Below are positions 6,651-32,800 of a DNA stretch of 64,000 nt, piece after piece. The stretch comes from Psammoneis japonica. Taxonomy: Eukaryota. The stretch spans positions 384,874 to 448,873 of the forward strand of contig QPGO01000029.1 in the NCBI GenBank assembly GCA_008632985.1, in the 5' to 3' direction. The first letter of the stretch is position 1, and the number at the start of each line of letters is the position of its first letter. The translations under genes were made by a program, and so were the position numbers. The notes beneath the pieces were generated by a model. The model had not been told where the DNA came from and did no database searches. It worked only from the letters and a program-made list of their open reading frames with translations.

Positions 6651-6989
6651 ACATCATCTTGGCAAGTTTTTCAAACTTGCCCCTGCACTTCCATGGCCAC
6701 TTCTGAGTTGTCATGTCATGTGGTGTGCTTGGCTCATGCACTTCAGTTTCATTCATGGTTGATGGTTGTTCTTAAGAACAGAGTGATGCCAGAACAAATT
6801 GTGGCTGGTTGCACCTCATGGCTCATGACATCTTCCAGATTTCAGGGATCTTTCACCCACATGGGTCAGAATTCTCATCTGACATCACAGACAGGAAATG
6901 CCTCTGTCATGCTTGAAGTCAAAACAGCCCACAATGGCCAGTGTAAACTTTCAAACTTCTCACCCTGCAGTGGTTCAGTTGTGAACTCT

Positions 6990-8113: not shown

Positions 8114-8114
8114 G

Positions 8115-10190
8115 TGCACCAGCAACCATGTTCCTGAAGTTGAAAGGAGCATTGAAACCATCAAAGAGCAAACTCAAGCCACTGCACACTGCCTGACATG
8201 CAAGAAGATGGTGCCAAAGTGGATGTGCAGGAATGCTGTGATCAAGAACACTGTCATGTCAATGTGTGCCCACAGCAAGAAGAAATTTCTGACATGTGCA
8301 ATCCACACACCATCATGCAATGAAGAAACCTCAACTGTGACAAGCACTTTGAGCTCACCTTTAGTGAATTTGTCCTTTCTCACATTGAGAACAACCCAAC
8401 AAACACCACAAACATGCATGGCATTGACAGCACACATCTGCAACCATGCTTTGATGTTCCCAAGGGTGGCCACCACCAGCCCACTGTGAACCTGCACATG
8501 GGCAAACTTCTGAATCTCTGTGCAAAGTGTGCTGCTGCACACCTGATTGACACACATGTGCAAGTGCTCAAGAAGATGGCCACAGCACAAGGCATCAAAG
8601 ATCATTTGAAATTTATGGGCAAATGCAGAGACAACCTGTGTGATGCTGGTTGGACTGCATGAGTGGAAAATGACAAAGACAAAAGCAATGGAGAAGATGC
8701 AAACAAAGACAAAGAAAACAAAGACTGTGCCAAAAATGTTGTGACCAACTCAGAAGATGACAACTGTGAAGACAAAGTGCTGGACTCTGGTGAAGAGTGC
8801 AAAGAAGCAAACAAGATCCTGGCCAATGGAAGATCCAGCCCTGATCAACAGCATGAGAGCAATGAAATCAAAGACACAATGACTGTGACAACACTGAAGA
8901 AAACAAGGACAGCATGGAGCCAGAAGAAGACACAAAGAAACCCAAGAGGAGACAAAAGATGGGAAGGAGAAAGACTGGCAGATGATTCAACAGCAATGAC
9001 TGGAAGAAGAGCCAGGTCCAGCAGTGCTTTTTTCATGCCACAACACACATTCAGAAGCACAAGAACACATCACAAGAGAAGAAAGTTTGATTTGCAGGAG
9101 TGGCAGAGACACTGCAAAAGAGAAGCACAAGCAGAACAGACTCAAACACTGTCACCATTTGCAAACAAATGTGAGCCCCAATCCAGAGGATGACATTGAG
9201 TGTGATGCAGAAACAGCAACGACACTGGCACAATTCATGTGCAAGCTTGACAACCAACTCCAATCAGGAAAGGGCATTTCCTTTGCCCAGCAGCATTTGC
9301 TGCACAGGGTCTGAAAGTGTTTGGCCAGAGTGTGACACCTCGGAGAAGGAGATTGGACAACTCCAGCCATGACAGTGTGTGTGTTTTGCACCAACATCAG
9401 TTGAAGACATGATTTTGACTGAGAGGGCCAAGGCTGTGATTGCCTTGATGTTCCCAATGGAGAAGCAGATGGTTGCACAAAATGACAAATGGTTCAAATG
9501 GAAAATTGAACAGAGAATGGCTGGATGAGGATGAATCAGCCAGTCCAATGGCATCATTGGAAGGAGTGCCAATGACATCCATTGTTGATGCTGTCAAAGA
9601 GCCTGATGTGATGAGCATGGATGTGCCAAACACGTTCATCTGGATGCTGGTCCTGGAACCCAACAAGGGTGAAACCTGGCTGGGCAATGACAAAGATTGC
9701 AGGAGTGATGTTTGACATGCCAGTGAGCATTGACTCCAACCTGCATGGACCATGTGTGGCCATTGAAAAGTGGAAGAGAGTTCTCCATGTCCAAGTCATT
9801 GAAGCCATGTGTGGCATGTTGGTTGCTGCACTGCTGTGGCACAAGCAATTCACAAGAACTTGGAGAAGATTGGGTTCAAGTTCAACTCATGCAATTTGTG
9901 CATCGCCAATTGACTGGACAATGGCAAGCAGCACACCACACATTTCCATGTGGATGACCTGCTGTTGAGGCATGCAAATCCAAAAGCAAACAACAAATTC
10001 TCAAGCTGACCAAACAAGATGTGTGCAAGCCTTGGTGAAGTCATCACAACATGAGGAAAGAAGCATGATTGCCTCAGAATGGTCCTGGACTTCAGCCACA
10101 AGCAAGGGCAAGGTGAAAGTTGACATGACTGGCTGCATTCACAAGATCATCAAACAGCTCCTGGAAGAGATCAAGAGTGTGGATTCTGCC
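8115..10190 (+). mobile_element. Degenerate Ty1/copia integrase-RT relic
   Basis: NHVPEVERSIETIKEQ (integrase), AQQHLLHRGLKVFG, SPMASLEGV...DVPNTFI and LHVQVIEAMCGMLVAALLWHKQF (RT). Confidence 0.85.
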
Positions 10191-10480
10191 ATGGTGCACA
10201 AAATCTTGAACAAAGCCATGTTGTGCTGTCAGATGATGTTGTCCAGTGTGCTGCATGCACTGACATGCTTCTTGGAATGCAGTCTCATGCTTGATTGACA
10301 CTTGATTGTCTTGTCAATTGCACACAGCATCTTAACTCAGAATGCCCAAACAATGTCAATGCAGAGGATTGCACCTTGTCTCTGTTCATTGTGTGTCTCA
10401 GGTGGAGTTGCTGTCATGTCGTTCCTCTCATGGGATTGGCACACATGTCTGGTGATGTCATTCCTTTCATGGGAGTGATG

Positions 10481-10577
10481 NNNNNNNNNNNNNNNNNNNN
10501 NNNNNNNNNNNNNNNNNNNNNNNNNNNNNNNNNNNNNNNNNNNNNNNNNNNNNNNNNNNNNNNNNNNNNNNNNNNNN
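10481..10577. other. Assembly gap (97 N)
   Basis: Run of N. Confidence 1.
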
Positions 10578-10599
10578 GACAAGCTTTTTGCCTGGTTTA

Positions 10600-12900
10600 A
10601 ATGCAAAAATGGCTTGAAATCCCTCATGTTGGGAATTCCAGCCTTGCAGCACAGTCTGAGTGCTTGCTCTGTGCTTGCAGCTTCCCTCTTGGTGCAGCCT
10701 GTGGCACCCTGTTCTGCCATTGGAGCCACAGCTCCAGATGATGCACTCTTGTGCTTCTTCTTTCTCTTTTTTTTTCTTCTTCTTCTTTGACAGCATGCTT
10801 GCATGTGATTTGCTTTCTTGATGTTCTTCAACACAAAGAATCTGGCTTGGTGCAAAAGCACACAGCCTGCTGACATCATTCACTCAAAACACTGTGACTT
10901 GTTTGCCAATCTTCTTGTCCAGCAGGCTGGGCTTCGCCCAGCACTTGGCCATCACATGTTGCACAGTGCTTGCTCTTAACATCCTTTAGACTGTGGATGT
11001 TTGCTGTTGTGTTCTCTGTTCCAAGCTTCACACACCCCATCCAGGCATGGTGCAGTCTTTGTCCAGGGTGTCCACTCCTGCATTTGTGAGCAGATTGAGC
11101 TTGGTCTTGGCTGGCCACACATTGCACACCAGCCTCCAGTTTGCTGCCATGCTGAGGGCAGAACCATTGTCAAGGATGATCTCATCCATCTCAATGTTGT
11201 TGTTGGCTTGGTTCATGCTTGTCTCTGGTCTTTCATTTGCCAGTTGCAACCTGTGGCATGCAGTGCTCCTGCTTTGGCTGGCATGGGTTGGTCAGTTAGA
11301 TCTGGCATTGTTGTTGATGGCTGCTCATGTTGTTGCCATCCACCAATGAGTTGTCATCATTGCCAACTTGTGTCTGTGCATGACTCTGTCTCTCAATGTC
11401 TGGCTTCCTTCCAGCAATCTTGAACCAACTGCTGTGCACAACGTCTTGTTTTTCATGCTTGCAGTCTGGGGACTTGTGATTGTTCAGTTCACCACAACAG
11501 CAACTCACCACATTTTCTCTGGTTGCTCTTCTGGGCATGGCTGTGGTCCTTTGAATTGTCAGACCAGTTGTTGCTGTTGTCGTCATTGCCACTTCTGTTC
11601 TTGTTGTCTTTTTGCTGATTGTTCTTCATCTTGCATTGGTTGCAAGGAGATTGTTGTCTTTTGGATGGCTCAACAGTGCATTGATTGCCTTCTTTAGAGT
11701 CTTTGGACAGGTGTCTTCACCCAGACCACATTCTCTCACAAAGATCTTCTTCAAGGCAGCTTGCAGCTCTTGCAGCAGCAACCATTGCTGTTCTCCATGA
11801 AAAGGCATGTCATCCATGTCTCAAACACTGACTCATTTAGTTCATCTTGAAGTGCAGAGTTTCCATCTTGGCACTCCTTGGCAGTGTGCACAAATCCATC
11901 TAACGCTCTGTCTTCCAGTCCTTCTTTTGTGGCATCTTGCTGATTCTTGATTCTTGAAAGGCAATTGTGTCTCATTCTCCTGTCACCTCACATCTAGAAT
12001 GTTTTTCTTCAGGGCCCCAGTGAGTGCATGGAACAGATGTCAACTTCTCATTGAGTTGGGTGTGAGGGATTGAATTGCTTTCAATGACATGATCAGATCA
12101 TCTCCAATGCTGGAGAAACTGGGATCAACTTGCATTCTCTGCTTTGTTTGCTTGATGTGCAGCAATTGTCAAAAATCTTTGCAAATGCAGGAGTTGTCTT
12201 GTTCTCTTTGAACTCTTTCACTGTTTCACAGTGCCTGCTTGGCTCTGCTTCATGCTTTTGTTCCAGCCATTTGTCCTTGCCCTCTTTCATTTGCAGTGTC
12301 ATTTGGTGTGTCCTGCAGCATCTTTTGCAGGCAGCATTGCCATGGACACTCTCATGGTGGGTTTCTTGGAAATGCAATCCTTGCATTCAATGTCCTCCAA
12401 AGACCTTGCCATGTGCATGCCTTGCTCACACTCCTTCTGTGTGTGGTGGATGAATGCAGCATTGCAAGCATCACTGTTTGGTGATGAAGGATGGAATTTC
12501 ATCTCAGGCTAAAAGTGCTTCTCAGTGTTGGTCTTCTTCTTTGGGTCAGAAGAGCTGTGACTCTTGTCACCTCTGCAACCACAACCTTGGCCTTGATTGC
12601 TTGTTCCACCACCTCCTCTCCCACTCATTGTGCAGGTGTTCAGCATTTCAACTGGCTGCATGCAAGCCATTGTTTGCAAGCACCAAATGCAGTGCTGGCA
12701 ATTCTTTGGAGTGAACATTGAACCGGCAAGCCATTGTCACCAAAAAGGAATCCTGCTGGGCTTTCTGTGCTGCTTGACACACTTGCTGTTCTTGTTTTGA
12801 CCAAAACCAGAGAACTCTTGTTTTCAGCAACTTTTTGTGTGATTTGCTCTCAATGACTTGTGGGCTTGGAGCCAGCTCTGTTGCTGCAGCCCACAGCAGC
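10600..12900 (-). mobile_element. Degenerate copia gag/protease relic
   Basis: Zn-knuckle-like SCCCGELNNHKSPDC and protease-like IILDNGSALSMAAN...LLTNAG. QKECEQGMHMARSLED is shared with the relic at ~40160. Confidence 0.75.
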
Positions 12901-13575
12901 TTCTCTTCTCTCACACTCCTTGTTGTTGCTCATTCTTGTGCTGCTTGTTGTTCTGTTCTTGACAGATTCTCACACCCTTGCAGCCACCAGACTCTAGACA
13001 CTGCACACCTCATGGTGGCTGGTCATTGTTGTCTTGTGCAAACATGCTCCCTCTGGCCTTTTTTGGAGCCTGGCTCAGGCCAACAACATGACTTGGCATT
13101 GCAGCTCATGGCAATTGGTTGTGGTGCACCTCATCTCAGACATCCCCTGGCCTGGGGCAACAGTTGGCAAAGCTGTGGCAAAGTTGAATCTGCCACTCAG
13201 CTTCATGCTTTTTCTAAGTTTTGGGGCCCAATCGAAAGCTGTTGACCAACAAAATGGAGATGCATGGCAAGTGGCTGCTCTCCTGGAGCATCTTGGTGAG
13301 ATTCGATTGCCGAAAACAACCAGAAAGTTGTGGAATGATTTTCATCCAGATTCAGGCAAGACTCTCATCGTCGTATGGTGAGCAGACTAGCTCGATCGCT
13401 TGTAGAACTGGGAACGTTTACAGATTGCGTTGCTCTAAAAGCGTTATCGCACAAGATCGTTTCAGAGTCTGCTTGTGATGTGCACTTTCCTTGCGGTTTA
13501 AACGACAGTTGTAAATGAATGGTCAGGCACGTGGGATAAGAACGGACGGAATGAAAAAATGACATGCTTGGAACA

Positions 13576-15899: not shown

Positions 15900-17143
15900 T
15901 GCTGTGCTATGCTTTGAGCATTTTTGTCTCCCACCGACAGAGACGATGTTGCGTTCATCAAGACGGTGCCTCGGTGCCACAGTGAAATCGTCAAACAATG
16001 TAAATCAGCGCTCTTCATCCAGCAGCGAATCCACCATTGCATCAACTTGTTGATGATTCCACTGAACAATGGGACCATGGCAGGTGCCGGAGAAACTTGG
16101 CTGATTTTTTTTCGGCTGTGTGGTGATGCACTGGTGCGGTGGCATGAAGTCATTTTGCGTCCCGGTTCTGAGTCTGATCCAGGTGTTTCATTTCTTTCTA
16201 GTTTGCTTGGGTCACCTGAGAGCTCTTGTGAAAAGCTTTTGAGAACTTGTTGTGGTTTGTTGAAGATGAAATTCGCTCGCATGACTGGAGACAGAGGCGC
16301 CACTCCAAGGTTCATTCTCTGGAATTTGTGCATGACGAGGAAGACTTCATTCACAAAAAGAGCAAAAGCCTGGTGTGTCCCATTGCAAACAAAAAAGAAG
16401 TGGCCTTTGCTCATGCATCAGAGACAGAGGATGATGTTGGCAATGCAGCTCACATGCTGAGCTGTGCTTGGGAGCAAGTTCACAGATTTAGAAATTTTCA
16501 TCTCTTCACTTGAAGAGTGTTCTCACTGACTCATTTGCATCATCAAATGCCATGTCCCTCAAACACACAATTGGCAATCCCAAGCAAACCTGCTTTTGGA
16601 TTTGTCACTTTTTTGCATGAAGCAGCACCAAGTGGCTGAAGACATCGAAGCACCCAAGGCTGTCACAACGAGTTTCAAACTCCAGTGATGGGCATTGGCC
16701 GCATTGTTTGCATGACATTGCCGTGGGAGAAAACCCAGTCTGCCTTTGTCAAGTGTGGCGCATCTTTGAAATTGCATCTCCAGTTTAAAAGGGAAATGGC
16801 TGCGATGTGAACAGCCACGCTGCCGCATCAAAAAGAGCATCTCTTGCATCAGTTGATGGTTGCGGCAAAAGATGTCAGGTCTGTTGACATGCTCTCTGCA
16901 CAAGCTCAGTTCTTTTGTTCTGTCACTTTCTTCTTGACATGTGATTTTGACCAGTTGCTCCTTGACAACTGATTTTGACCAGCTTGCATCTTTTGAATGA
17001 TGACAAAAATTCATGGCTCTGTTTGCACCTGCAATGCTCTCTCCTTGACAACTGAATCATCCTGGATGGAAGTGGCTGCAGCAGCGGACATTGTGAGCAA
17101 CAAATGACTCTGTGTCAAACAGCACTTGACATGACAAACAATG
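15900..17143. mobile_element. Degenerate unclassified repeat DNA interrupted by the young copia element (continues after 24257)
   Basis: TA-depleted sequence with broken ORFs, continuous across the GGAAA target-site duplication. Confidence 0.45.
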
Positions 17144-17148
17144 GGAAA

Positions 17149-17424
17149 TGACAGGATTTGAACAGGATTTGGATGCGCGCGAAGCATCGCGCGCTGTTTA
17201 GTTTACCGCGCACAGTTTTGTGTGCTTTAGTTCCGCGCGTTCACGCGCGATGTAGTTTGCTTTCGAGCCACAAGGCTCACAAGAATAATAACAGTAGCCC
17301 GATTATACCGACTTACACGTCTTTCGGCTCCTGTAACGGTCTCTGAGCGGAGACTCATCTGCTATTTAGACAGCAGTAAGGAGTTATTGTTTGAATTCTT
17401 GCCATTTGCCTTCATTTTCTGTCA
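17149..17424 (+). repeat. 5' LTR (276 bp)
   Basis: TGACAG...CTGTCA inverted termini; differs from 23978-24252 by 8 substitutions and 1 indel. Confidence 0.98.
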
Positions 17425-17438
17425 GATTAACAGTCTTG
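17425..17438 (+). promoter_or_regulatory. Putative primer-binding site complementary to a tRNA-Asn(GUU) anticodon arm
   Basis: GATTAACAGTCTTG directly follows the LTR. Its reverse complement CAAGA-CT-GTT-AA-TC has anticodon stem-loop geometry. Confidence 0.65.
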
Positions 17439-18363
17439 CTCATTGTCAACCCATTGAGCAACCGCCATCGTCGTCGTTGATTTACCAACGACGCTATTTC
17501 AATTCTACGTGGACCTCCGTATATATTCTACATACATCGGCAAGTCTACGCGCATTCAATACCAGGGCATCGGCAGGAAGTTAACGTCACCGTCAAGTCT
17601 CCTTACCGCTGGATATCTGGATTGATTATACTACCTTTGATCGCTGAAGACATACATTCAACGGTCATATCCAAGTCTATCCTTGATCCTCATCCCTTGA
17701 TATACCTATTCATCGGTCAACGGTCAAGAACCCTGCATATTCAAGGATCTTCGTCGCTGAAGACACACATATATATACATATCTTCACGGCCAAGAACCT
17801 GTACCCACTCTTCGGACCACGGTTTTGCTGCCACTCTACAAGCACACCGAGTCCATTGTACCTGATCTACCCCGGACCACTGGTGCTCTACAGTTCTGCC
17901 AGGTCCACGAGGACGACTGTGAGAGCAAGCAGCCGTGATTGCAGCCTGCGTTGGGGCGAGGGTGCTTTCCCGCGTTTGTTCGTTCGTCCACAGCGCCCAA
18001 CGCCTGCGTCAACTGGCCAGCCTGATCGGGAAATCCAACCGACATAAAACAAGAACGGTTCGGGGGTCTTGTCCACCTCTAGTCAGCTTGCCTGCAGGGG
18101 TTTGCAACCCGCTGCTCCGCTCGCAAGCAACCCAAAGCGCCGCTGGCTGCGGGTTCGGACGTGCCGGCACAACTCTGCGGACCGGACAGGAAGTTTAGCA
18201 CTTGACAACGAACGGGATAACAAAGCCCGGCGACTTCTGATTTTAAGACAGTTCAAGATTTCAAGTCAAGTCTGTTTCAAGTCAAGTCTGTTCTCACCCA
18301 AGTTTCGAGTCCACCTTCGCTTCCCAACCAGAATTGATTGTCCTGACACCATTTTTGTCTGCC

Positions 18364-21300
18364 ATGGTTCTCACTCGTCAGCAACAAACCGATGGTTTCG
18401 AGCACGTGGTTGGAACCGTGCTTGCCCAAGGTGCTGGGAGTCCTCTTCGTTTGGCTTTGGCCCAAGACGGCACGGACTCATGTCAGGAACTGTTCACGTT
18501 CATGCCGTCCCAAATCGACTCGCTTGAGTGCAACAACGGCACCAATGCAATCCCTTTGCCCCGTGGTTGTAAGAACATGTTAGCAGCACTGGTCAGTCTG
18601 TACATTGTCAAAGCACACAAAGGTCTTGACGTTGCCAACGACTCCTCTTTGTTCACGCATGACGAGTTCCTTGCCCACCGCCTCAGCCCCGACTGCATGT
18701 CTTCTGTGTCCATCGGCAGCTCACCCCTTGCACCTCCACATGTCACCAACCCGACCAAGGCACGCGACCCGGTGCGAGACTTCAAGCGAGGCATCAAGCG
18801 TGATCCCACCGCTTTCACGGCTCTCAAATCCGACAAGCAGTGGCACACTTGGCACACCTCACTTGTGGCACAAGCCCGTGCCCAAGACGTCGAGTGCATT
18901 CTAGACTCGTCGTACAAACCGACCAGCCCCGAAGACAAACTGCTCTTTGCCGAACAGCAAAAGTGCATGTTCGCCGTCTTCGAACGCATCCTTCTCACCG
19001 ACAAGGGCAAGGCTCTCATTCGCGAAAATGTGGGGTCCTCTGACGCACAGACCGTCCACCGCTCCTTGTCTGCATGCGCGCTTGCCTCCACCCGTGCATC
19101 TGTCGAGTCCTCCACCCTGCTCACGCACCTCACCACCGCACGTCTTGGTGATGGCACTTGGAAAGGTCCGACCCACGGGTTCATCCTTCATTGGCAAGAT
19201 CAGTTGCGCAAGTGCGAGGCACTCATCCCCGCCAGCGACCACTTCTCTGAAGGACAGAAGCGCGTCATGCTCGAGAATGCCGTGCATCCTGTCGAGGAAC
19301 TCCGTGCTGTCAAGAACCAAGCTGATCAGCATCGTACGCAGAGTGGCAAGAGCCTCACATGCGATCAATGCTGTGGCTTGCTCCTCTCCGCGGCAGCTCA
19401 GTGCGACAGCACGTTTCAACCCAAGACGACACCTCGAGCTCCCCGACGCGCCATGTGCGCACACGACGTCTGCTCCGAGGAACCGTCCGACGATGTGTTC
19501 TACGACATTGACAGCGACGTTGACGTCCTTCAAGCCAATGCTGCCTGCACTCGTGGTCCCAGCCTCACCGGTGTCCAATGGAGACGTCTCCCTCCCGACC
19601 ACCAACGGCTCTGGGATTCGTTGCCCGATTCCTCCAAGGCGATCATCCTTGAGCACTCTCGTCCGCCTCCCCGCAACCCGCGAGCCAGCAACCACCATGA
19701 GTCTGTTACGGCCAACCTTCACGACCAACACCTTGGGAGTGACGGTGATGTCAACTTGTCCAACACGACTCCTGCTGACTGTGGTGACCCCGCTGCACAT
19801 GTGGACGCCACTTCGGACAATCCCATCCTGGCGCACCTCACCAAGCGCAAGCCACTGCCACCCGGTGATCTGCAACGTCTGTTGTCTCCTAACCAAGCCC
19901 CCAATGCCAGTCGACCGGGGCCATCCGCCGCTTCCTCTACCCCGCCAGCTTCTGCAGATGACACAGAACTCAACGGCCGCACTTGCCGCCGCGTTGACAA
20001 CCACAATGTCATTTGCTCTGCCTCTGCTCATCGCTCCACACGCACTGGCGCTCTAGTCGATCGTGGGGCCAACGGCGGCATTGCTGGCGATGACGTTCGC
20101 GTCATTGCACGAACCTCCCGCCAAGTCGACGTTCAGGGCATCGACGATCATCAATTGGTGGACATCCCCATTGTCACCGCTGGTGCCGTCATTGAGACCC
20201 AGCGTGGTCCCGTCATCGCCATCCTCCATCAGCACGCATGCACGGGAAAGGGCAAGACCATCCATTCCTGCGGCCAGCTCGAATGGCACAAACAGGATGT
20301 CAACGATCGCTCTGTCAAGGTGCCCAACGGCTTGCAACGCATTGCCACTCCTGATGGCTGTGTCATCCCCATTGACATCAAGGCTGGCCTGCCTCATGTT
20401 GCCATGCGACCTCCACACTGACGCCGAATGGGACACCCTGCCCCATGTCATCCTTGCCGGTGATGACACATGGGACCCTTCCGTCCTCGATCACTCTGTC
20501 ACTGACGACGACCAGTGGTACGACGCGATCTCTGATCTACAGGACGATCCCACTGCCAACCTGTTTGACGAATGCGGCAACTACCGTCACCGTGTCGTTG
20601 TCAACGAGACCATCTTGTCCGCTTCCTTGTCTGCCGATCACGCATCCGCCCTCGATGATCACCTCATTCCGAACGACGACGTGTTCTACGAGTGTCATCT
20701 GCATGCGATTGACCCCACGGGCGATGACGTTCCACCTCCGGAGCGCACTGTAAAGCCCAAGGACCCCCCCTTCGAGTCTCTTCGGCCTTGCTTTGGCTTC
20801 CTACCTGCCGATGCGGTCCGTCGTACTTTTGACTGCACCACGCAGTGCGCCCGCATGCCCGCCGGTACACACCTTCGCAAGGCCTGCAAATCACCCAACC
20901 CCGCCCTTAATGTGCACCGCCGCAACGAGCCCATCGCCACTGACACCGTTCATGCCGACACCCCGGCCGTCGACTCTGGTTGCACCAGCGCCCAACTGTT
21001 TGTTGGCACCGAGTCTACCGTCACTGACGTCTGCGGCACCAAGACGGACAAAGAGTTTGTCAACACACTCGAGGATCAGATCCGTGAACGTGGTGCACCA
21101 TCCAAACTCATTGGCGACCGTGCTCAAGTTGAGATCAGCAACAAAGTGCTCGGGATCCTGCGCCCTCTTCATCTCCAGCTGGCAAAGTGAGCCTCACCAG
21201 CAACACCAAAACTTTGCCGAGCGTCGATGCCAGACTGTGAAGCGCATGGCGAACACTGTCATGGACCGTTTTGGTTCGCCCGCCCACACATGGCTGCTGG

Positions 21301-23960
21301 CGCTCATGCACGTGTGCTTCATGCTCAACCACACAGCGTCCCCATGTCTCCACTGGCGCACGCCCTTCGAGACTCTCACTGGATCCACCCCGGACATCAG
21401 CCCATTGCTTCGCTTTCACTGGTGGGAACCAGTGCACTTCCACCTCGATGACTCCGATTGGCCGTCCGAATCTCGTGAGTTGCGTGGACGCTTCGTTGGC
21501 ATTGCTGAGCACGTCGGCCACCAGATGACCTTCAAGATTCTATCTGACGAGACTCAGAAGATCCTCTGCCGGTCCAACGTTCGCTCCGCCACCCCCGATC
21601 CTGCCGTTCGAAACCTGCGTCTTGATCCTCCTGATGGGGAGCCACCTGAACCCATCATCAAATCTCGCCATGACGACAACCCCGTCGATTCTCCTGATGG
21701 GGAGATCAGGACACCCAAGATGCCAGTTTTCGATCCGCAAGACATCATTGGACGTACCTTCCTCATGCAGCCACAAGAGGACGGACAACGCCACAGAGCT
21801 CGTTCGTCAAGGCCGTCGAAGACCACGAATGGAAAGTGAACGGCAATCCTGAGCTCACTAAGTTCGTCTGCTCTGTCAACAATGACGAATACGAGGAAGT
21901 CCTTGCCTGCAATGACATCATGAATCACATTGAGCAAGAAGACGAAGACACCACTGTTTGGAAATTTCGACGCATCGTGTCACACGAAGGCCCTCTGAAG
22001 CCTCACGACCCAACCTGGAAAGGCTCAAGCTACAACATCATGCTTGAATGGGAAAGTGGGGAGATCACGTCCGAGCCTCTTGCCATCATCGCCAAGGACG
22101 ACCCCGTCACCTGTGCCATCTATGCACGAGAGAACGGACTCCTCGACACGGATGGATGGAAGCGGTTCCGCACCATCGCGAGGCGCCAAAAGAAGCTATT
22201 TCGCATGGCCAACCAAGCCAAGCTTCGCTCCTTCCGCACTGCACCTCGCTACAAGTACGGATACGAAGTTCCCCGGAACTACAAACACGCCATGTCACTA
22301 GACGAACGCAACGGCAACCGCAAGTGGGGAGACGCAACTAATCTCGAGATGGACCAACTCGACGAATACGAAGTCTTCCATGACTGCGGGCCCTTCAAGT
22401 CTTCCACTCCTCCTGCGGGACACAAGAAGATCCGAGTCCACCTGGTGTACGACGTGAAACACGACGGTCGCCACAAGGCACGACTCGTAGCCGACGGGCA
22501 CCTCACGGACGTACCTGTCGACAGTGTCTACTCCGGAGTAGTCTCCCTTCGTGGCCTTCGGCTGATGATTTTCCTGGCCGAACTCAACGAGCTGGAGACA
22601 TGGGCCACCGACATTGGCAATGCCTGCCTTGAAGCCACCACCAAGGAGAAGCTTTACATTGTAGCTGGACCCGAATTTGGCAAACTCGAAGGACACATCC
22701 TTGTCATCCACAAGGCACTGTATGGACTCCGCAGCTCCGGTCTCCGCTGGCACGAGCGCTTCGCCGACTGCCTGCGAGCTGAAGGCTTCTTCCCCTGCCG
22801 CGCCGAACCCGACATTTGGATGCGCAGGAACGGCGACCACTGTGAATACATTGCCGTTTATGTGGATGACCTCGCCATTGCCATGAAGGACCCTCAATCT
22901 TTCGTCGACACTCTCACGGAAAAGCACAAGTTCAAGCTCAAGGGTGCGGGACCCATTGAGTTCCATCTGGGTTGCGACTTTTCCCGGGACCCCGACGGAA
23001 CCTTGTGCCTGTCTCCGCGCAAGTACATCGAGCGCATGGTCGACAGCTGCGCCCGACTGTTTGGGGAGAAACCTGCCACCAACGCCCTGTCACCTCTGGA
23101 GAAGGGTGACCACCCCGAACTGGACACTTCCGAACTGCTGGGACCCGATGGCATTCACAAGTTCCAGTCTCTTGTTGGTTCACTCCAATGGGCAGTGTCC
23201 CTTGGTCGAATTGACATTGCCACGGCCGTCATGTCACTCTCTAGCTTCCGAGCTGCGCCCCGTCAAGGCCACTTGGATCGTGCCAAACGCGTCTGTGGGT
23301 GCCTCTCCAAGATGCGACACGGTGCTCTCCGCGTTCGCACGGAAGAGCCCGACCATTCGGATCTCCCTGCTCCGGCCTGCGAATGGATGCATTCCGTGAT
23401 GGTGAAGCAGAAGAGATGATCCCGAAGGACGCTCCATTGCCCCTTGGCAAGTTCGTCACTGCCACCCACTGCGTCGATGCAAACTTGTGCCATTGCATGC
23501 TCACCGGACGCTCTGTCATGGGAATGCTCCACTTCCTCAACAAATTCCCGGCTGATTGGTTCTCCAAGAAACAAGCCACCGTGGAGACTGCAACCTGCGG
23601 ATCTGAATTTGTTGCCGCAAGGAATTGTGTTGAGCAGATTGTCAACCTGCGCATCACCCTGCGCCACCTTGGCGTCCCGATCCGCAATGTCAGTCACATG
23701 TTCGGTGACAACAAGTCGGTTGTAGACAGTGCCACCATCCCGCACTCCAAGTTACACAAGCGACACACCGCACTGTCGTTCCACCGTGTGCGTGAGGCAA
23801 TTGCCTCTGGTTGCCTTGAGTTCCACTTCATCGAAGGCTCCCGCAACCCTGCTGACATTCTCAGCAAGCATTGGGGCCACTCCCAAATCTGGGACCTTCT
23901 CCGCCCCCTCATGTTCTGGAACTTCATTCCATCCGAAGTCGAATCTGTTTCTGTGGCTCC
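18364..23960 (+). pseudogene. gag-pol polyprotein of the copia element, frameshifted near 20410, 21160, 21800 and 23390 and with many Tyr->Cys/His changes
   Basis: DFKRGIKRDP (gag), LVDRGANGG (protease), WQSEPHQQHQNFAERR (integrase), HKARLVADGH / KALYGL / YVDD (RT) and ADILSKHW (RNase H). Confidence 0.93.
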
Positions 23961-23966
23961 TCAAGC

Positions 23967-23977
23967 AAACTGGGGAG
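23967..23977 (+). promoter_or_regulatory. Polypurine tract
   Basis: AAACTGGGGAG immediately upstream of the 3' LTR. Confidence 0.7.
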
Positions 23978-24252
23978 TGACAGGATTTGAACAGGATTTG
24001 GATGCGCGCGAAGCATCGCGCGCTGTTTAGTTTACCGCGCACAGTTTTGTGTGCTTTAGTTCCGCGCGTTCACGCGCGATGTAGTTTGCTTTCGAGCCAC
24101 AAGGCTCACAAGAATAATGACAGCAGCCCGATCACACCGGCTTACACGTCTTTCGGCTCCTGTGACGGTCTCTGAGCGGAGACTCATCTGCTTTTAGACA
24201 GCAGCAAGGAGTTGTTGTTTGAATTCTTGCCATTTGCCTTCATTTTCTGTCA
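23978..24252 (+). repeat. 3' LTR (275 bp)
   Basis: Direct repeat of 17149-17424, followed by the TSD GGAAA. Confidence 0.98.
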
Positions 24253-24615
24253 GGAAAGCTTGGCATTTGTTGTTGATTGTTGCTTGCACAGCACTTGGTC
24301 TCTCTCCACTCTGCAGCAGCTGTTCATCATTCACAGTCGTGAGTGCAAGGCAGCAAAGTCTGCGCATCACACACACTTGGTCACAGCAAAATTGCCATGA
24401 TGCATGTCTGTCTGTGTCCCACCTGGTCTGGAGGAATGCAACACAGCTGTCCATTGTTTGCACTGCCTTGCAGTTGCTCATCAGTCATCCACACATTGGC
24501 CAGTCATGTGACATGTGGCAGCAAGCAAGCTTCTCATCTGCTGCAGCAAAGTTGGTGCACCACCCAATCTGGGCAGCGGGACAGGAGAATGGGTGGGAGG
24601 GTTGTTTTGGCAGTG

Positions 24616-25449
24616 CTGTGCAACTGTTGTGATGCTGCAGCCTGTGCATGGGCACCACCCCATGCAGTTGCTCACAGTGTCAATGCAACTGCTCCCACAT
24701 TGGATCCACTCTTGGCCCCTGATTTTTTGTCTTCCTTTTGCCAACACAAAAAGAGTGAAAGGCTCCTTCAAACTTTTCATGTTGAAACAACCAGTTTTTT
24801 CAAATGAGTGGATGGAAAGGTGTCAATCTGTTCAGCCTGTCCACCCTCCTCTTGTCCACATCACAACAGCAATTTGCACCACCTTGGTCACTCTTCAGTC
24901 ATCAAAGTTGGTGCACAACCCAATTTGGATGGCGGGAATCCAGAACCTTTCATGCACCTCCTCCACCGTGACGTGGTCGCATGCCACAAAAAAAACATTG
25001 AGAAGGGTGGGTTGGACTGACTGGGATGTGCTGTTGCAATGCAATGAGGGGAAGAGTGATTGCTGCCTGACAAGATGAAAGGGAGAAGAAAGTGGAAAGT
25101 CAAAAGGAAACCTTGAACAAAGGTGAGGCAAAGGCATCAAAAAAGGGTCAAGCGGTGTCCCACTAAAAACCCAGCCTGTGCCCACCAACTTGCTTCCAGT
25201 CTGTGCAATTGCTGCGATGCTGCAGCCTGTGGGTGGGTGCCACCCCATGCAGTGGCTCACAGTGTTGGTGCAGCTGCTCCTGCATTGAGTCCACTCTTGG
25301 CCCCTGATTCTTTGTGTTTCTCCAACCAAAAAGAGTGAGAGGATCCTTCAAGATCTTCACATCAAAGCAGTCAGTTTCTTCAAACAAGTGGATGGAAAGG
25401 TGTCAATCTGCTCAGCATGTCTGTCCTCCTTCTGCCCACATCATGACAG
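24616..25449. repeat. Diverged direct repeat of ~250 bp (24616-24869 and 25201-25449)
   Basis: Collinear alignment by eye, e.g. shared TCCACTCTTGGCCCCTGATT and AGTGGATGGAAAGGTGTCAATCTG. Confidence 0.9.
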
Positions 25450-25531
25450 TGTGCAGGGTGGGCGGCTGGGTGGGTGATGGAAAACAAGCAAATTGAAAAT
25501 GACAGCTGGTCCGTTTTTTGCACATTCTTGA

Positions 25532-26028
25532 CCCTTCAACCACCAGGGGAGCAAATCTCCATGGGTGGAGATTTGCTCTGCTCAAGGATGTGTGACGTGT
25601 CATGCACTTTTGTGATGATAGAATGCACACAGTGAAAAAATGTCATGTCGTGTGCAATCTGCACAAAGCACACCACGTGCATTTGCTTGTTGGGAGCAAA
25701 TCTCCACCGGTGGAGATTTGCTCCCAGGGTGTGGCATTGTGCTCTGTTTGTGATGGCAGTTCATGACAAGCTGCATTGTTGTGGGTTGAGATTTAGTTCC
25801 TCTCCACACACAGATGAAGCTTGCAAAAAACCTGGTGTTAAAAGTCGACATTGAACTTTCTAAATTGCAAAAAGGGTGCCTCCAGATTTTCGGCGAATGT
25901 GCGTTCCAGAACAAAATCGCGCGAACAAAACATTGTGTGTGTCTGAAATTACTTCATTTGCCACATTTGTGATGCAAGCGAGCAAATCTCCACCCGTGGA
26001 GATTTGCTCAAGTCCGGTGGTTGAAGGG
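25532..26028. mobile_element. Non-autonomous piggyBac-like element (MITE, 497 bp)
   Basis: Perfect 13-bp TIR CCCTTCAACCACC / GGTGGTTGAAGGG that extends imperfectly to ~48 bp. Flanked by TTGA (25528-25531) and TTAA (26029-26032). Three internal GAGCAAATCTCCA...TGGAGATTTGCTC palindromes. Confidence 0.85.
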
Positions 26029-26899
26029 TTAAGAATTTTGCCATTTTCTGTTGTTTTGTGGTGTTTTGTGATGTCACATTCTGCCATGCATGTCCAGTGG
26101 AATGTGGGTGGGTGTGTGAGATCCCACAAAGGATGGACAAAACACCTCAACGGCACTGCATGTGCCGGCCAGCTGGTGGCTGGTTGCCCCCCTTGCAACA
26201 CAAGAGCAATGAAAACGATTTGTCATTGCCAGTGCAACCTCTCACCTGCAGCGCTTTTTGAACTGAGCTGCAAATTTAGCACATCAACACTTGCAGTGTT
26301 TTGACAATCAAAACTGAAGGAGTGTGTTGCTCCAAATGCAATTTTTAGCTGGTGTCACATTCTTCATGAAAAATGCTCTCTGCACACTTGCTTTTTCATT
26401 TTTTGGAGCTTGTGTTTGTGATCTACTTTAACTCAACTGATGTCCAAACATGCCCTGTTTCTCCAGACACCAGACAGTCAGTTTGCACTGAGAGTGCTGC
26501 AAAACAATGTCCTCTCACCTCTCACCCATCTCATCCACCAGCCCTCTTTTTGTGCACACTTTTCACTCAAATCTCCACATGTCATGGTCAAGAAGAAAAA
26601 GCAAACTGGAGTTGGCCATGAACCATCAACACAAATCAGGAACTGGCAACAGCAAAAACAGAAAGTGTTCCAAAGGGCTGTCCTTTCCAAGACAATTCCC
26701 CACCCACCCCAATTGATGCTGAAGGAGCAACAGCCACTCCCTCCAACCTCACCTCTGACAATGCCATCATCACTCTCTCCATCACTCCCACTGACCAAAA
26801 TCCTGTCAGCCTGAAACCCTCCTCAGAGCACTTCACTTTTAACCCCAATGCCTTTGACAAAAACCACAAAGTCTCCAACAAGCACTGCATCATGCAGTG

Positions 26900-29880
26900 G
26901 TGAAGAGGAGGGATGGCATCTCATCTTGCACCACCACTCAGGAGCAACAAGCTTGCACCTTGATGTGTGCATTGCAAATGCCCAACATGGCTTGCCCCAT
27001 TGTGAGGTTTGTGGTTTGTGTAAATGACCAAGAAGCAGTTGGGCAAAATGTGGGGAAATGCCAACAACAAAAGCAATGGTCAATGCCACACTGACAACAC
27101 AAATCTTTTGTCTCTTTAGCAGCAATTGGGGTCTCCAGTTCTCCAGAAAAACCTGCTGACAAACCCAAATCATTTTCCAAGGACTGTGCCAATGCACACT
27201 TGGCCTAAATCCAAAAACTGTTTGTTGACAAACAAAGCAGGGAAAGATTGCCAGAGTGGCCTTTGTTGAGAACAAAGAAGATTGCAACCCCGCTGGTGTC
27301 CTCATAATTTTTTTCCTCTGAGATCTGCAAAGCCTTTGTGCTGCATTGGTTGGGAAAACATCCTGACACAGTGCAGTCATCCAACTCAAGAGACATGACT
27401 CTCTTGTCAAAGATGAGCAAAGATGGAAGCAAAAAATGAGCAAACAAATGGTTGTGCAACACGTCTGTGTGTGAGCTCCACAATTGCATGCTGGCAGATT
27501 TGACTTTGCTTGTGGTGCCAATGGCAAGACCCTCATTGGCGACACCAGGTTTCAGCACTTTTCAATTTCCATGCAATGACAAAAATTTAACAGCAGTCAA
27601 CACAGCATGTGTCAATGCAGCAAGATTGCATGAGTGCACACTTTCTACAAGACAAATTAAGCAGCTTTCAAAGAAGGCTTTTAAAAGAAATGCAGGTGGA
27701 GCAGAAATGGTTGAAGGTTGTGAACAATGACCCTGGAAACTCTGAGAGCCATGACAGTGAAACTGGCAATTTGGAGAATCAAGTTGTCCATTGTCAAGAG
27801 GAAGCATTTGGCTCCAACTTCAATCACCTTCATTCTAAAGCTCAAGATGCAATTGTGACCATTGCTTGTGGCAACATGAATGGTCAGGATCATCCTCACT
27901 GCAGCCACATTTTAGGTGAATGCAAGAATTGCCCATCCCATCTAACTCCATTCTTGTTGGAACAGAGTGAAAGTTCCAATGCACCCCAAGTTTTGTTTCA
28001 AAGAGATTTGACTGTCAAATGTTGTTCCAAGCATGGCATGTTCAGTGTTCACAAAGCATGTCCTGTTTGTCAGGCAAATCCAGATGGAACAAGGACACAA
28101 AGGTCAAATGAAAAACCTTGTTGACAAGGTTCCCCAAACCAATTGGGTGTTCACAAAAGAGCACCACATTCAAAAGTTTGAAGCTGCATCATCATCTTTC
28201 TCATGCAGCCGTTCTTGGGAACAATTGCTGCATGTGGAAATGTGTTGCAAGGCAATTGAGTTAATGCTCAACAGCATTTTCACACAAGCTGACTGCTCTG
28301 AGTGTCTTCTGTCTGAGTTTGACAACCAAATTCATGACGGGGGTTGTTGTGGCAACAACTGAACAATGTCCATTGAAGGCAGAGTTTGCAATGTGACAAT
28401 TGACAACGAGGCTGAGAAAACATGTTTTGTGCATCTCTCTGATTCTTCCAAGCAAGATGATGCTGCAACTCACACTCACTTAAAGAAGTTGGTCACATGA
28501 TCAAAGAACTGGGGACTGCATCAGGCGTGACTTGTGATTTGGAATCACACCAATGGTTGTGCCAAACAGCATCACATGCTTTTTGTGCTGTGCTTGTTGT
28601 CTCTGTGTTTGCCCACAAATGCAAAGTTGTCTTTGATTGTGATGTTGGAGCACCTGGACTTGGCAAAAAAGAATGCTGGAGCCTGCATTGAATCACTTGC
28701 ATGCCAAAAAATGCAGTCCACAACTGTTGCAGAAGTCAATTGTGAGGACGGGAAAAATTTGATCTGATGCTTTGGTCAAGGATGTTGTGGCAGAGCACAG
28801 TTGCTCATGGGAATGTTGAAAATTTCTTGAAAAGAAAGAGAGCACCAATGACACAATTGGTGACAGCAAACATGCTTTGAGGAAATCTCTTTGAAAGTTG
28901 AATTAAAGGGTGTGTCATCTGTGGGAAGCAGACAAAGTTCTTGGTTCTTCAATTGAAGTCAAGTTGCCTGGATTGGCACAAGTGCACATGTGCCATTGCG
29001 GCATTGGCGCTGTGCACCAGCTTCAATTTGAACCCCTTTTCCCATTGGTTGGGTTGCCATGCAATGCATTCCTTGTGCTTGTGATGGCTGCCTGGGTCAG
29101 CTCAAACAACCTTGGACAAACAACATGTCAGCCCAACCAAGCACCTTTGACATGCAACTGGCAACCAAGCTTTTGCAAACTGTGGCCCATCTTCTTTGAG
29201 AGACTGAATGACTGGCAAGTTTGTCAGGTGTTCTGAACAACTGAGAGTGACAAAAACATGGTGCAGTTGGTTCACAAATGTGTGTTGGATGTTTTGACTG
29301 AGCAAATGGCAGAGAAAATTGTTGTGAACTGCTGCACCACCTTGTCTTGTGAATCTGAAGAGGGCTTCCATCTGCTGCAATGGGGATGAGCTGCCCCACA
29401 AAGCATGGGAAGATGCAGTGTGGAATGAGTTTGACTCAAATGGGTTTGCAAAGGAATGCATCCAAGCCATGTTTCAAGCCAGAGGATGGCGCACTCCTGG
29501 AGATGCTGAACGCTGTTAGAGAAGAGTGTTGTTTGAGCAAATTGTGGTTGCAAATCTTGAGCTGAATGAGCTGTCAGCCTCTCTGCAACTTCCAAGGATG
29601 TGCAACAGGAATGAGGCTTCACTTCTTAATCCACATCATTTGACTGAGGATGAGCATGAAGCCATTCTTGATGCAGTCCACCAGCGTGAGTCACTGGATT
29701 ATTTTGAGGATTGTTTGGAGGAGGAGGAGGACAGTGAAAGTGATGAGCCTGAGGAAGAGAATGATGATGACAGGGAGGAGGTCAGCATGGGAATGGACTG
29801 CAAAAGTGATGAGCCCAAGGAACAAAATGGCAATGGGAAAATGAATGAGCACAGTGGTTGTCACTTTGCATCATGCAACT
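26900..29880 (+). mobile_element. Degenerate DNA-transposon transposase relic (DDE/D type, tentatively Sola-like)
   Basis: Ordered decayed motifs QADCSECLLSEFDNQI, HLSDSSKQD, HTNGCAKQH and VGAPGLGK, comparable to DYxE...SD...TDGCxxQY...GHGK; upstream Cys cluster and acidic tail. Confidence 0.6.
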
Positions 29881-29899
29881 AGATGGACCATCTGACACA

Positions 29900-32800
29900 A
29901 ACACACATTTCTCAAGTCACAACTCACAAGCTTTCCTTTTGCCACCCCACTTTGCTGCCTTAAGAGTTTTAAACCAGTGCACAGCAGCCACTTGTTTTCT
30001 TGCTTGACCACACATTTTGCCTCATGTTCCTCATTTCCAAGACACCAATTCAAGCACTTGACACGTCACTTGCTGGCAATGCAAGATGGCAATCAGAGTC
30101 AAAGATCCACCCACAGTGTGAGTTGGCTCTCAATGCATTGGTTGTTCACTGGACTTTACAAAGTCATGCAGTCATTGTTGCATGGTTGTCACATCAAATT
30201 CACCACCCACTTCCAGTCCAAGGAAATGGTTTGATCCAAAGTGCCACAAAACTTCATCTTGGAGTTCTCTGGTGAGAACTTTTCCTTCAAACAGCCGCTC
30301 AGCATTTCCTTGCAAATGACGTGCAATTGTTGTCAGCTTTGATCTGTTTGGCAGATGCTTCAATGTGAGATGCAATGGTGCAATCTCTCATTTCCCAAGT
30401 TGCCAACACAATGAAGAACACTGGCCAGGGACAAAAACACACAAGCATCTTTGTTTCCTTGCAAGAATTTCACAGGTGGGCCACTCATCAGCAAGCCCAT
30501 CTCCATTGTGACAGTGCATTCCTTCTGGCAATGAGTGAAAACCATCCTCTGGCTTCCCACTTTTTAATTCCTCCCAAACATGTGAAAAGCAAGTCTTGAA
30601 ACTGCACCCAGTCCAATCTGGAGTCAAACGGCATTCATGGCAGTTGCTCTCTAGAGTGCAGCCAACAAAATGAACAACCTGCGGGTTCTTTGGAAGACAG
30701 CCAATCTCCCCCTGAATCAATCTCTCAACTTTCACAATCTGCGCTGAGCTGCAAATCAAATGCACGTTCTGCTCAATCTCATCTCTGCCTTTTAGATTTG
30801 TGACCTGGACTCTGTTGGGTTTGTGTTTGGCACATGTGATGAGGCAACACATGTTTTTGTGGGATGCCCCCCTGAATTTGTTGGTGCTGTTGGCAAACCA
30901 TTTTTCAAACAACATGAAGCAAGAGTTGGGTTCTTTAAAGCAACCAAGCAAGTGAGGATCTGCTCCTGCTGAAGAATCACGAGGGTGCATTTTCCCAGTG
31001 TCCCATGAACTCAGCTAAATCCAAACAAATTTTGCAACCTCCAACATTGCTTGAACATCATTGTGCATTTTCTTGTTCACCTCTCTTTCTTTTTGGTGAC
31101 AGCACTTGTCTTTGCTCAACTGACAAACTGACATTGCTTGCTCTTGGTGCTCTTGGTTGTCTTGGCTTTGAGGTGTGAAGGCCAATGAGATCATTGTCAT
31201 TGCTTGCTCCTGTGATGTCTTTCAACATCTCGGCCTCCTTCTGGTGTTTGCAGCAAGCATGTCCCAGTCTCTTTTTCTTCTCTTCTTTTTTGTCTCCAGG
31301 TTCTGGGTTTTCTGCAGCCTTGCCCAGCTTCAGCCATGCAATGATGACAATGCATCCTTTTACAAAACAAGCACCACTGCAGTTGGGGAGCTGCCTTGCA
31401 CCAAACAGCAATGTGAGTCAGTGGAGCATTGAAAAAGTCCTTCTTCTTTTTGTCACTTGAGAATTTTTGCAGCAACAACTTTTTGTCATTGGCAACAGCT
31501 TGCACCATCCTGGAGGACCACTTGGGGGAAAAATGACCTGCACAAATGCTTGCACCTCAATCCAGATTTTGTCTGACCATCCCTGTCAGTTGTGAGAACT
31601 TGCAACACATGGTTGTGCCATCAACCAACAACATTGTGCAATGCCCATGACAGTGATGTCTCTTCAGAGTTGCATGGGCCAAATGGGAAAATTTTTCAAC
31701 AACCATGACTGCCGGAACAACACATCAGTGCTCTGCATTCTGCATTGGTGGGAAGCCTGTGAGTGAAAGGATTCTTTTGCATGTCATCATCCAAATCTTC
31801 AGGGCTCTTCCTCTTGCAATGCTCATTGTGAAGAACACAATCATTGTTGTTGCACAGACTGGACTTTCACAACTTGTGATGTTTGACACCTGGAACAAGA
31901 TGCAGCTTTTTGTCCACCTGCTTCCTCTGAGCAACTTCTGATGTGATGGACCAACAGTTGTGTCTTTCACACCACAGCCCTTTTGAAGATAAAATGGCAC
32001 ACTTTGTGTCATGTTCAAACTTGAAGCGCAATCCCTTCAATGCCAAAATGTCAAATTTGTTCTTTCCCAACAGGGTCTTCACTCGCCAACAACTGTCAAA
32101 CACAATCTTGCCAAAAGGCAGCCACACAGTCTTTTTTAGACCACTGCTTGAAGTTTGAAGTTTGCACTTTTTCTGAATGACCAATGTTGACCTGGCTTTC
32201 TTTGTAAATTTTGCACTTGGGACTGCTGAAAAAACTGTCAGGTGGTGCCACCACCCAAAAGTCAGGGTCATTGCTTGTCTCAGTGGCACAAGTGACAACC
32301 CCTTTGCTGGAACACGACAATGCCCATCCCTTTTGCTGGAACAAGGCAATGCCAGAACAACTCCAGAGCTCATTGGAGCAACCAACTCAAGGTGCTGCAA
32401 GAGCATTTTTCATGAGATTCTCCCACTCCCAGTGCTTTTGCACTGCTTTCAAGTCTGAACATTGAGGCATTGCATTGACAATGTTCTCAGAACCCAGCAC
32501 TTCCTTGCAACAAGGTGACAGCATCTTCTGACAACAAAGATGTGCCTCCCACTTGTTGTGCAAGCTAAAAGGAACTTGAACAAGTCCAGTCAAAAAAGAC
32601 AAGCACTGCAGTTGGATGGGACAATCATCTGTTCATCAGCACCCTCCCCCCCAATCATCACAACTGAAGAATTTTTCACATGGACACAATCAACAAGCCC
32701 CCCAGCTCTGCTGTTGACATGGCACAACAAAACAGCAGCCACGTGTTCCTTCACAGCATCCCTGGTCAATGTTTCCAATGGCGCCACAACCAACCTCAAC

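Follow-up and report, generated by a model that had tools for sequence, protein, structure and literature searches.

TpA-directed transitions between the paired long terminal repeats of a diatom Ty1/copia retrotransposon point to a probable DNA-level mutator acting after integration

Introduction

Integrated giant-virus and virophage DNA in Bigelowiella natans, a chlorarachniophyte of the Rhizaria, undergoes TpA-specific hypermutation, according to a recent preprint (Mettrop et al., bioRxiv 10.64898/2026.01.13.699255). In mutation-accumulation lines, de novo TpA to TpG/CpA changes arise in the integrated virus DNA at ~6e-7 per site per generation, and two integrated viral regions mutate ~1000-fold faster than the remaining genome. 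These changes are almost exclusively A to G/T to C, and all of them fall at TpA, giving TpG or CpA by strand. The long-term trace is TpA depletion with CpA and TpG enrichment; mutation appears to be episodic, and TpA-poor coding sequences are enriched in reverse-transcriptase (RT) and DDE domains. As the responsible enzyme, the authors suggest a DNA adenine deaminase similar to ADAT2, and their Discussion adds that ADARs favour a 5′ U and attack repeat-derived double-stranded RNA (bioRxiv 10.64898/2026.01.13.699255). The present study concerns a stretch of 64,000 nucleotides from Psammoneis japonica (assembly GCA_008632985.1, contig QPGO01000029.1, positions 384,874 to 448,873; the window, in which all coordinates are counted from its first letter). 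It carries a Ty1/copia long terminal repeat (LTR) retrotransposon whose two LTRs differ mainly by the loss of TpA. A literature search for TpA hypermutation in diatoms, in which subscription journals were mostly uncovered, found no report and returned the B. natans preprint as the sole relevant paper.

The diatom footprint matches what the preprint describes for B. natans in its chemistry, TpA context, strand symmetry, and class of target (foreign or integrated DNA). Its changes are A to G/T to C by the inferred polarity and are almost confined to TpA, they are local (one 64-kb window), and CA and TG are in excess, with odds of 1.6 to 2.4 in depleted blocks where TA stands at 0.00 to 0.1. The host here is a diatom, however, and not a chlorarachniophyte, and the target is a dated LTR retrotransposon, whereas the main targets in B. 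natans are viral insertions. TpA depletion is only mild in B. natans, where the viral region has odds of 0.45 and the cluster threshold is 0.43, compared with 0.00 to 0.07 here. In B. natans a rate was measured in mutation-accumulation lines, whereas footprints alone are seen here. Furthermore, CpG decay appears here as a sequel, and neither "CpG" nor "diatom" occurs in the preprint text.

Other systems resemble the footprint in part. Repeat-induced point mutation (RIP) of ascomycete fungi, whose machinery is RID/Dim-2 cytosine methyltransferase-like, also makes transitions only, is dinucleotide-specific, affects both strands of repeats after integration, ruins transposon genes, and inflates divergence. 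However, RIP turns C to T at CpA, which makes TpA and lowers the guanine-plus-cytosine (GC) content, whereas here TpA is destroyed and GC rises. C-to-T change at CpA, TpA gain, and AT enrichment are thus absent: the direction is opposite and the host is a diatom. In mammals, APOBEC3 deaminates cytosines of minus-strand cDNA before integration, leaving strand-specific G-to-A changes and identical LTRs. It shares with the present case the clustered, context-specific transitions in retroelements expected of a host deaminase, but the single-strand bias and identical LTRs of such pre-integration editing are not found here, where both strands are hit and the LTRs differ. Diatom transposons carry CG methylation, and decay of methyl-CpG also produces a TG/CA excess, which is seen in the older blocks of the window (CG odds 0.04 to 0.1). 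In contrast to the present process, it spares TpA, and the element is so far untouched by it (CG odds 0.93). Finally, in A-to-I editing by ADAR/ADAT enzymes A is read as G and a 5′ U/T is preferred (including in the ADAT2 DNA editing cited in the preprint). These enzymes are mainly RNA editors, whereas the change described here is heritable, lies on both DNA strands, and is post-integration.

Results

The two LTRs of one insertion differ at TpA

The element belongs to a very abundant family of Ty1/copia LTR retrotransposons and is inserted in old repeat DNA of a diatom genome. LTR ends of TG...CA type, a 5-bp target duplication, and an RVT_2-type RT place it in this class. Its parts, all on the + strand, are as follows.

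17144 to 17148, + strand: left target-site duplication, GGAAA, an identical 5-mer abutting the 5′ LTR
17149 to 24252, + strand: the Ty1/copia LTR retrotransposon, 7,104 bp, recognized by paired LTRs, target duplication, and RVT_2
17149 to 17424, + strand: 5′ LTR, 276 bp, TG...CA ends (repeat finder, MAFFT, and scripted global alignment)
17425 to 17900, + strand: leader, with TA at the expected density of 15 to 21 per 250 bp
17901 to 23977, + strand: TA-poor interior (fine TA map of 250-bp bins)
18247 to 20418, + strand: open frame of 724 codons, presumably gag plus protease
21041 to 23922, + strand: pol region, four pieces in three frames (tblastn with copia polyproteins of relatives, P0006)
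22409 to 23047, + strand: RVT_2 RT of Ty1/copia type (PF07727, E 5.5e-29, residues 238 to 450 of frame 21698 to 23416)
23978 to 24252, + strand: 3′ LTR, 275 bp, TG...CA ends (repeat finder, MAFFT, and scripted global alignment)
24253 to 24257, + strand: right target-site duplication, GGAAA, an identical 5-mer abutting the 3′ LTR

The LTRs are direct repeats 6.8 kb apart. Scripted global alignment found eight transitions and one single-base indel between them, exactly the list that the original prediction had drawn up by eye. The 5′ LTR reads TA where the 3′ LTR reads TG at 17290, 17335, and 17386, and TA where the 3′ LTR reads CA at 17295, 17304, 17306, and 17377. The sole substitution outside TA is A versus G at 17311, and opposite 17364 the 3′ LTR is without the A of one TA. 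At all eight substitutions, A/T stands in the 5′ LTR and G/C in the 3′ LTR. The dinucleotide counts (5′/3′ LTR) are 15/7 for TA, 18/22 for CA, 18/21 for TG, and 21/21 for CG. Hence, the further claims that seven of the eight substitutions lie at TpA and that no CpG was destroyed also hold. The 3′ LTR is short of 8 of the 15 TAs of the 5′ LTR (three now TG, four CA, and one deleted), and these losses are confined to LTR positions 142 to 238.

Thirty of the 276 LTR bases sit in a TA. The probability that at least seven of eight substitutions fall there is 1.3e-6 if all bases are equally likely to change, and 1e-4 if A/T bases alone can change. Were the changes to run the other way, as in RIP, the eligible bases would be a C in CA or a G in TG, which account for 43 of the 138 C/G bases, and the corresponding probability is 1.7e-3. 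If both LTRs were equally exposed, a split of 8:0 would have a two-sided P of ~0.008; the split hints at mutation in bursts. Within the explanation that we regard as best, the seven TpA substitutions are footprints of a mutator and not ordinary clock-like divergence; the single-base deletion probably is one as well.

The two LTRs of one insertion are identical at the start, both being copied from the same U3, R, and U5 templates. Therefore, the differences between them arose in the chromosome. Losses of TA went to TG and to CA, three versus four in the LTR and, at the conserved tyrosines described below, seven cysteines versus two histidines in the element and three versus eight in a metagenomic relative, L080. 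Changes therefore occurred on both strands, which would not be expected had the sense RNA or the minus-strand cDNA been edited. That only one LTR had been hit, as first proposed, stands as far as the 8:0 split is concerned; the 3′ LTR is, however, the end of a TA-poor stretch that begins at 17.7 to 17.9 kb, so that its neighbourhood is marked too. LTR dating is inflated as foreseen, with 8 of 275 sites (2.9%) differing against 1 of 275 (0.36%) outside TA.

Indirect lines of evidence make TA the older state

Two sequences alone give no polarity, and four other sources of evidence were therefore used. At the protein level, we considered the element frames P0004 and P0005 (RT/RNase H) and the positions that hold tyrosine (Tyr) in at least 80% of 50 relatives. 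Frame P0002 was left out of this count for its poor alignment (114 of 179 "conserved" columns differ), as was P0003, in which none of the 25 columns is Tyr. At the 22 conserved Tyr columns, the element has Tyr 10 times, cysteine (Cys) seven times, histidine (His) twice, and another residue three times. Cys or His thus replaces Tyr in 9 of 22 columns, compared with 0 of 126 in six control relatives (Fisher P 7e-9). The reverse, a conserved Cys or His turned into Tyr, has no case in P0004 or P0005.

Sister copies, which the original prediction took as the arbiter of polarity, were represented by contigs from four runs of one sample at 85% likeness, and the comparison covers the 40 best-supported variable places listed (358 further places vary). 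At six leader and interior sites (17718, 17735, 18177, 18187, 18548, and 18569), TA makes up 57 to 89% of the family depth where this copy has CA or TG; the eight LTR sites themselves lie outside the rows listed. At nine sites with adjacent double differences, some sister copies read CA and others TG, the pattern that independent loss of an ancestral TA would give. Transitions account for 347 of the 397 variable places in run X1. At the LTR indel, where the 5′ LTR has TA, sisters either have an extra G making TG or read CA; a single step separates either variant from TA, and two separate the variants from one another. Taken together, these lines indicate TA as the older state and the 5′ LTR is read as the unmutated one. 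Tyr and sister polarity thus agree with the differing LTRs that TA was lost in DNA after integration, as the original prediction had it, and the mixed strands and non-identical LTRs also bear out its argument against RNA editing.

As a separate observation, this copy has CG where 99 to 100% of sister depth has TG at 18951, 20142, and 23380, and the reverse holds at 18532 and 20091. Therefore, CpG-type differences also separate copies or subfamilies.

TA density falls abruptly inside the element

The TA odds ratio is 0.81 in the 5′ LTR, 0.82 in 17425 to 18246, 0.19 in 18247 to 23977, and 0.43 in the 3′ LTR. From 17901 to 23977, there are 0 to 8 TAs per 250 bp against 9 to 15 expected, and at most 5 outside 22251 to 22750. 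The density drops abruptly near 17.9 kb; the TA-poor stretch begins at ~17.7 to 17.9 kb and reaches the end of the 3′ LTR, and both flanks of the element are nearly TA-free. Within the otherwise spared leader, this copy has private TA losses at 17718 and 17735, where 89% and 57% of sister-contig depth, respectively, carry TA. CpG is at expectation throughout the element. GC is ~57% in the mutated interior versus 44% in the two spared 250-bp bins (17251 to 17750).

The RT region has 15.0 TA per kb, compared with a median of 47.7 in 80 related elements, only one of which is lower. These elements were taken from metagenomes by two search patterns, one of which includes Tyr and therefore selects against mutated copies. 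Their TA odds lie at 0.50 to 1.00 in 78 of the 80, and TA-poor bins number 5 of 882, all at one locus. Against this range among relatives, TA density appears ordinary in the 5′ LTR and leader but depleted in the remainder of the copy. The loss is comparable in the 3′ LTR (8 of 15) and the RT region (15 versus a typical 48 per kb), which fits a single post-integration tract. The first 0.6 to 0.75 kb may have been spared because such a tract ended there, because a fresh copy overwrote this part by gene conversion, or because its cis sequences were under selection in the source lineage.

Two of the 80 relatives carry a like signature. L080 has TA odds of 0.02, and its conserved Tyr columns hold His eight times, phenylalanine (Phe) five times, Cys three times, and Tyr once; its RT (464 to 2068) contains a single TA in 1.6 kb and only two stops. 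The Tyr-to-Phe replacements in L080 are of a kind that the mutator's transitions do not produce; they may stem from selection to avoid TA in a still mobile lineage. In L037 (TA odds 0.31), the same columns are Tyr 10, Cys 4, and His 3.

Coding content of the element

The 724-codon frame at 18247 to 20418 has no Pfam match, and a protease-like D-x-G stretch in it was seen by eye only. The pol frame is broken near 21165, 21800, and 23390, judged by tblastn with the polyproteins of relatives, and sister contigs have one or two additional bases at these break points (21159/21161, 21802/21803, and 23398 to 23400). Relatives' polyproteins align upstream of the RT from 21041, where integrase would lie in the copia gene order, but Pfam found no match at E <= 1 to integrase (rve), gag, or protease in any element frame. 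A purine run, GGGGAG, lies at 23972 to 23977, immediately upstream of the 3′ LTR. Three of the five small indels of this copy are single-base losses inside a TA, at 21802/3, 23398, and 24192, where sister copies read TA, CA, or TG, and two of these losses break the pol frame. Such losses may have arisen as lesions were repaired, or the consensus may be in error at places where copies differ.

A search of a protein collection found 2,417 homologues at E <= 1e-10 among 8,000 scored candidates, and PF07727 was present in all 120 of the matches listed. The closest relatives are 60 to 73% identical and almost all metagenomic. Inside the window, BLAST with the LTR and interior matched only the element itself, and tblastn with seven copia polyproteins over the whole window found no copia coding outside it. 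One exact 26-base LTR word had no match in metagenome_contigs, viral_contigs, or genome_contigs.

Older repeats in the window are nearly free of TA, and host genes are spared

Over the whole window, the TA odds are 0.21. Among 128 bins of 500 bp, 54 are poor in both TA and CG, 22 in TA only, and 2 in CG only, whereas 50 are normal; TA-poor bins thus total 76 of 128. The 2-kb windows within 6 to 12, 24 to 36, and 38 to 54 kb have TA odds of 0.00 to 0.16, and most of them have CG odds of 0.04 to 0.16, with CA and TG reaching 1.6 to 2.4. The three erased blocks, for which no strand is assigned and which were delimited by dinucleotide odds, and two host genes are as follows.

5001 to 13000, no strand: older repeat block, nearly TA-free, with CG nearly gone from ~6001
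24258 to 35000, no strand: older block nearly without TA and CG, adjoining the element downstream
38501 to 54000, no strand: older TA-free block, holding a C-rich array that keeps CpG
2906 to 4642, − strand: intron-free open reading frame (ORF) of an ammonium transporter, its best named relatives being diatoms
61000 to 62367, − strand: coatomer-delta ORF, all of whose organism-named matches are diatoms

In the first block, 2-kb windows from 6001 to 12000 have TA odds of 0.01 to 0.07, CG odds of 0.04 to 0.11, and CA/TG odds of 1.8 to 2.4. The TA-free blocks contain 150 stop-to-stop ORFs with 90 codons or more, of which 140 were scanned and matched no Pfam family; the 10 excluded ORFs belong to the array at 41.8 to 46.4 kb, one of which was scanned separately and had no match. 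Twelve pairs of old repeats contain 234 double mismatches in total; 95 of these set CA against TG, which is the commonest class in 10 of the pairs. This excess indicates that the older copies were likewise hit independently.

Several structures lie in these blocks. The segments 5285 to 12770 and 39829 to 48312 are inverted copies of each other, old repeats of 64 to 73% identity. An 86% inverted repeat (7632 to 8111 and 9723 to 10191) stands just before a 97-base run of N, a scaffold gap, at 10481 to 10577. The array at 41800 to 46400 is C-rich, degenerate, and of short period (GC skew −0.7 to −0.8, TA zero, CpG kept); three + frames are open in it, the longest for 1,498 codons, without a match in Pfam, and it matches itself at 70 to 76% identity.

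Seven host ORFs with Pfam domains have TA odds of 0.27 to 0.54 and CG odds of 0.89 to 1.19. Host genes are spared, and the erasure is limited to the non-genic DNA of this window. The bin counts and the host ORF odds therefore show TA erasure to affect non-genic DNA, where it seems to precede CpG loss. The host is a diatom: besides the two genes listed, ORFs with a helicase-associated domain and FG-GAP_2 are consistent with such a host, and the best identities of the host ORFs are 64 to 79%. A tandem duplication of ~180 bp (2237 to 2600, 93% identical) lies just 3′ of the ammonium-transporter ORF.

The TAs that survive in TA-depleted bins are mostly TTAA, CTAA, and TTAG. They have a T before or an A after in 81 of 111 cases versus 200 of 583 in normal bins, and both 3′ neighbours are purines in 61 of 111 versus 91 of 583. 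This context could be the neighbour preference of the mutator, or these TAs could have been newly made from CA/TG.

Discussion

Previously, a TpA-specific mutator was known to us from the integrated viral DNA of B. natans. The diatom case is a new instance, on a dated retrotransposon, of this kind of mutator, which was first reported in 2026. We consider it likely that a targeted mutator acted on the DNA of this copy after integration. The element would first have integrated into old repeat DNA, where a post-integration process working on DNA would turn TpA to TpG/CpA, that is, A to G on either strand. The action of this mutator would have extended from ~17.7 to 17.9 kb through the last base of the 3′ LTR, with hardly any change to the 5′ LTR and leader. 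In the older repeats, which occupy most of the window, the same process would have gone almost to its end, CpG decaying there later, and it would spare host genes. We infer that it is enzymatic, that it singles out repeated or foreign DNA, and that it proceeds in bursts or tracts. By analogy with B. natans, the foremost candidate agent would be a member of the ADAT/TadA adenine deaminases, or of a similar family, that acts on exposed DNA, and we propose this enzyme class only tentatively.

Several observations weigh against this reading. The signature occurs in only 2 of the 80 environmental relatives, although the Tyr-containing search pattern disfavours mutated ones. The eight LTR substitution sites are themselves polarised by indirect lines only, and some interior CA/TG sites are 93 to 100% one state among sister contigs; part of the interior TA loss may thus be inherited from an already mutated source copy. 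A context rule in which TA followed by a pyrimidine is the target and a 3′ purine protects, suggested by the surviving TAs, finds no support in the seven dated LTR events, three of which struck an adenine with a 3′ A. The Pfam scan found no deaminase among the ORFs of this window. None of the contig rows listed spans a flank together with the variable LTR sites, and the run with the deepest coverage may be the assembly's own data and would then not be independent. The sharp sparing of the first 0.6 to 0.75 kb could instead be produced by gene conversion.

Under that last alternative, both LTRs or the whole copy would have been hit by a TpA mutator and the first 0.6 to 0.75 kb later overwritten by gene conversion from an unmutated sister; the mutator would stand, but the claim of a hit on one LTR alone would fall. 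The abruptness of the switch near 17.9 kb is what such an event would leave. Moreover, summed contig depth, which is not a copy number, is 60,000 to 228,000 on the element versus 63 to 145 on the flanks; the family is very abundant in the sample, and conversion donors would therefore be plentiful. The private TA losses at 17718 and 17735 in the spared part, however, fit a gradient at least as well, and we regard conversion as rather unlikely.

An assembly, polishing, or chimera artefact, in which the consensus mixes reads of other copies, appears improbable. It would account for the three single-base losses at sites where copies vary between TA, CA, and TG, the window does contain a scaffold gap, and none of the listed rows spans an LTR and its flank. 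Yet the 5-bp target duplications match, so that both ends belong to a single insertion, and polishing with many copies would be expected to reduce the differences between the LTRs. In run X1, contigs match the TA-free flanks with no difference at 24225 to 24800 and two at 16600 to 16955. Furthermore, the independent metagenome assemblies that gave L080 and L037 have the same signature.

Editing before integration, by an ADAR-like A-to-I activity on RNA or by deamination of cDNA and then fixed by integration, is very improbable. The 5′ U preference of ADARs and their double-stranded RNA target derived from repeats, as noted in the B. natans preprint, would suit it, and the interior TA loss could partly have been inherited through transposition cycles. 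Nevertheless, LTRs that start identical differ here, both strands are hit in the LTR, in the tyrosines, and in L080, and old repeats without detectable retroelement coding are equally erased.

A RIP-like process in the reverse direction, with the 3′ LTR ancestral and CpA/TpG turned to TpA in the 5′ LTR, has hardly any likelihood left. A pair of sequences alone would admit it, CpA to TpA being the classic fungal RIP context. The TA density of the 5′ LTR and leader is ordinary and not in excess, however, conserved Tyr is lost and never gained, and at sites where CA or TG stands in this copy most of the family retains TA. The window as a whole shows TA erasure, CA/TG excess, and higher GC in the mutated part. 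Selection against TpA/UpA or compositional bias with no mutator at all can be dismissed, for although TpA is under-represented in most genomes and host ORFs here have TA odds of 0.27 to 0.54, repeats that are decayed and non-coding have odds as low as 0.00 to 0.07, the loss has ruined invariant tyrosines as well as reading frames, and the LTRs of one insertion differ.

If a post-integration TpA mutator did act here, several consequences follow. A second eukaryotic supergroup, and an ecologically dominant one, would possess a TpA-destroying mutator of mobile DNA. The LTR pair is a naturally dated substrate, which shows that the change takes place in DNA after integration, affects both strands within a tract, and precedes CpG decay; it adds to the data from mutation-accumulation lines. 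Ages taken from LTR divergence would be inflated in such genomes (here 2.9% versus 0.36%). TA-erased transposons escape repeat libraries and homology searches, as the erased blocks illustrate, with 0 of 140 scanned ORFs matching Pfam. Since TAA and TAG stops vanish from erased DNA, spurious long ORFs appear in it. A natural activity that edits adenine in DNA specifically at TpA is also suggested by the footprint and would merit isolation.

It is conceivable, although we hold it to be speculative, that an "inverse RIP", a dedicated defence by a DNA adenine deaminase, operates in diatoms or at least in this lineage and in the hosts of L080 and L037. This defence would erase TpA in kilobase tracts from repeats and foreign DNA, act before methyl-CpG decay, and leave most intergenic DNA free of TA. 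If so, a retrotransposon would be ruined before its LTRs otherwise diverge, and transposon lineages would evolve TA avoidance, as the Tyr-to-Phe replacements in L080 hint. Should the same system operate in Rhizaria and stramenopiles, it would represent an old and widespread pathway of eukaryotic genome defence.

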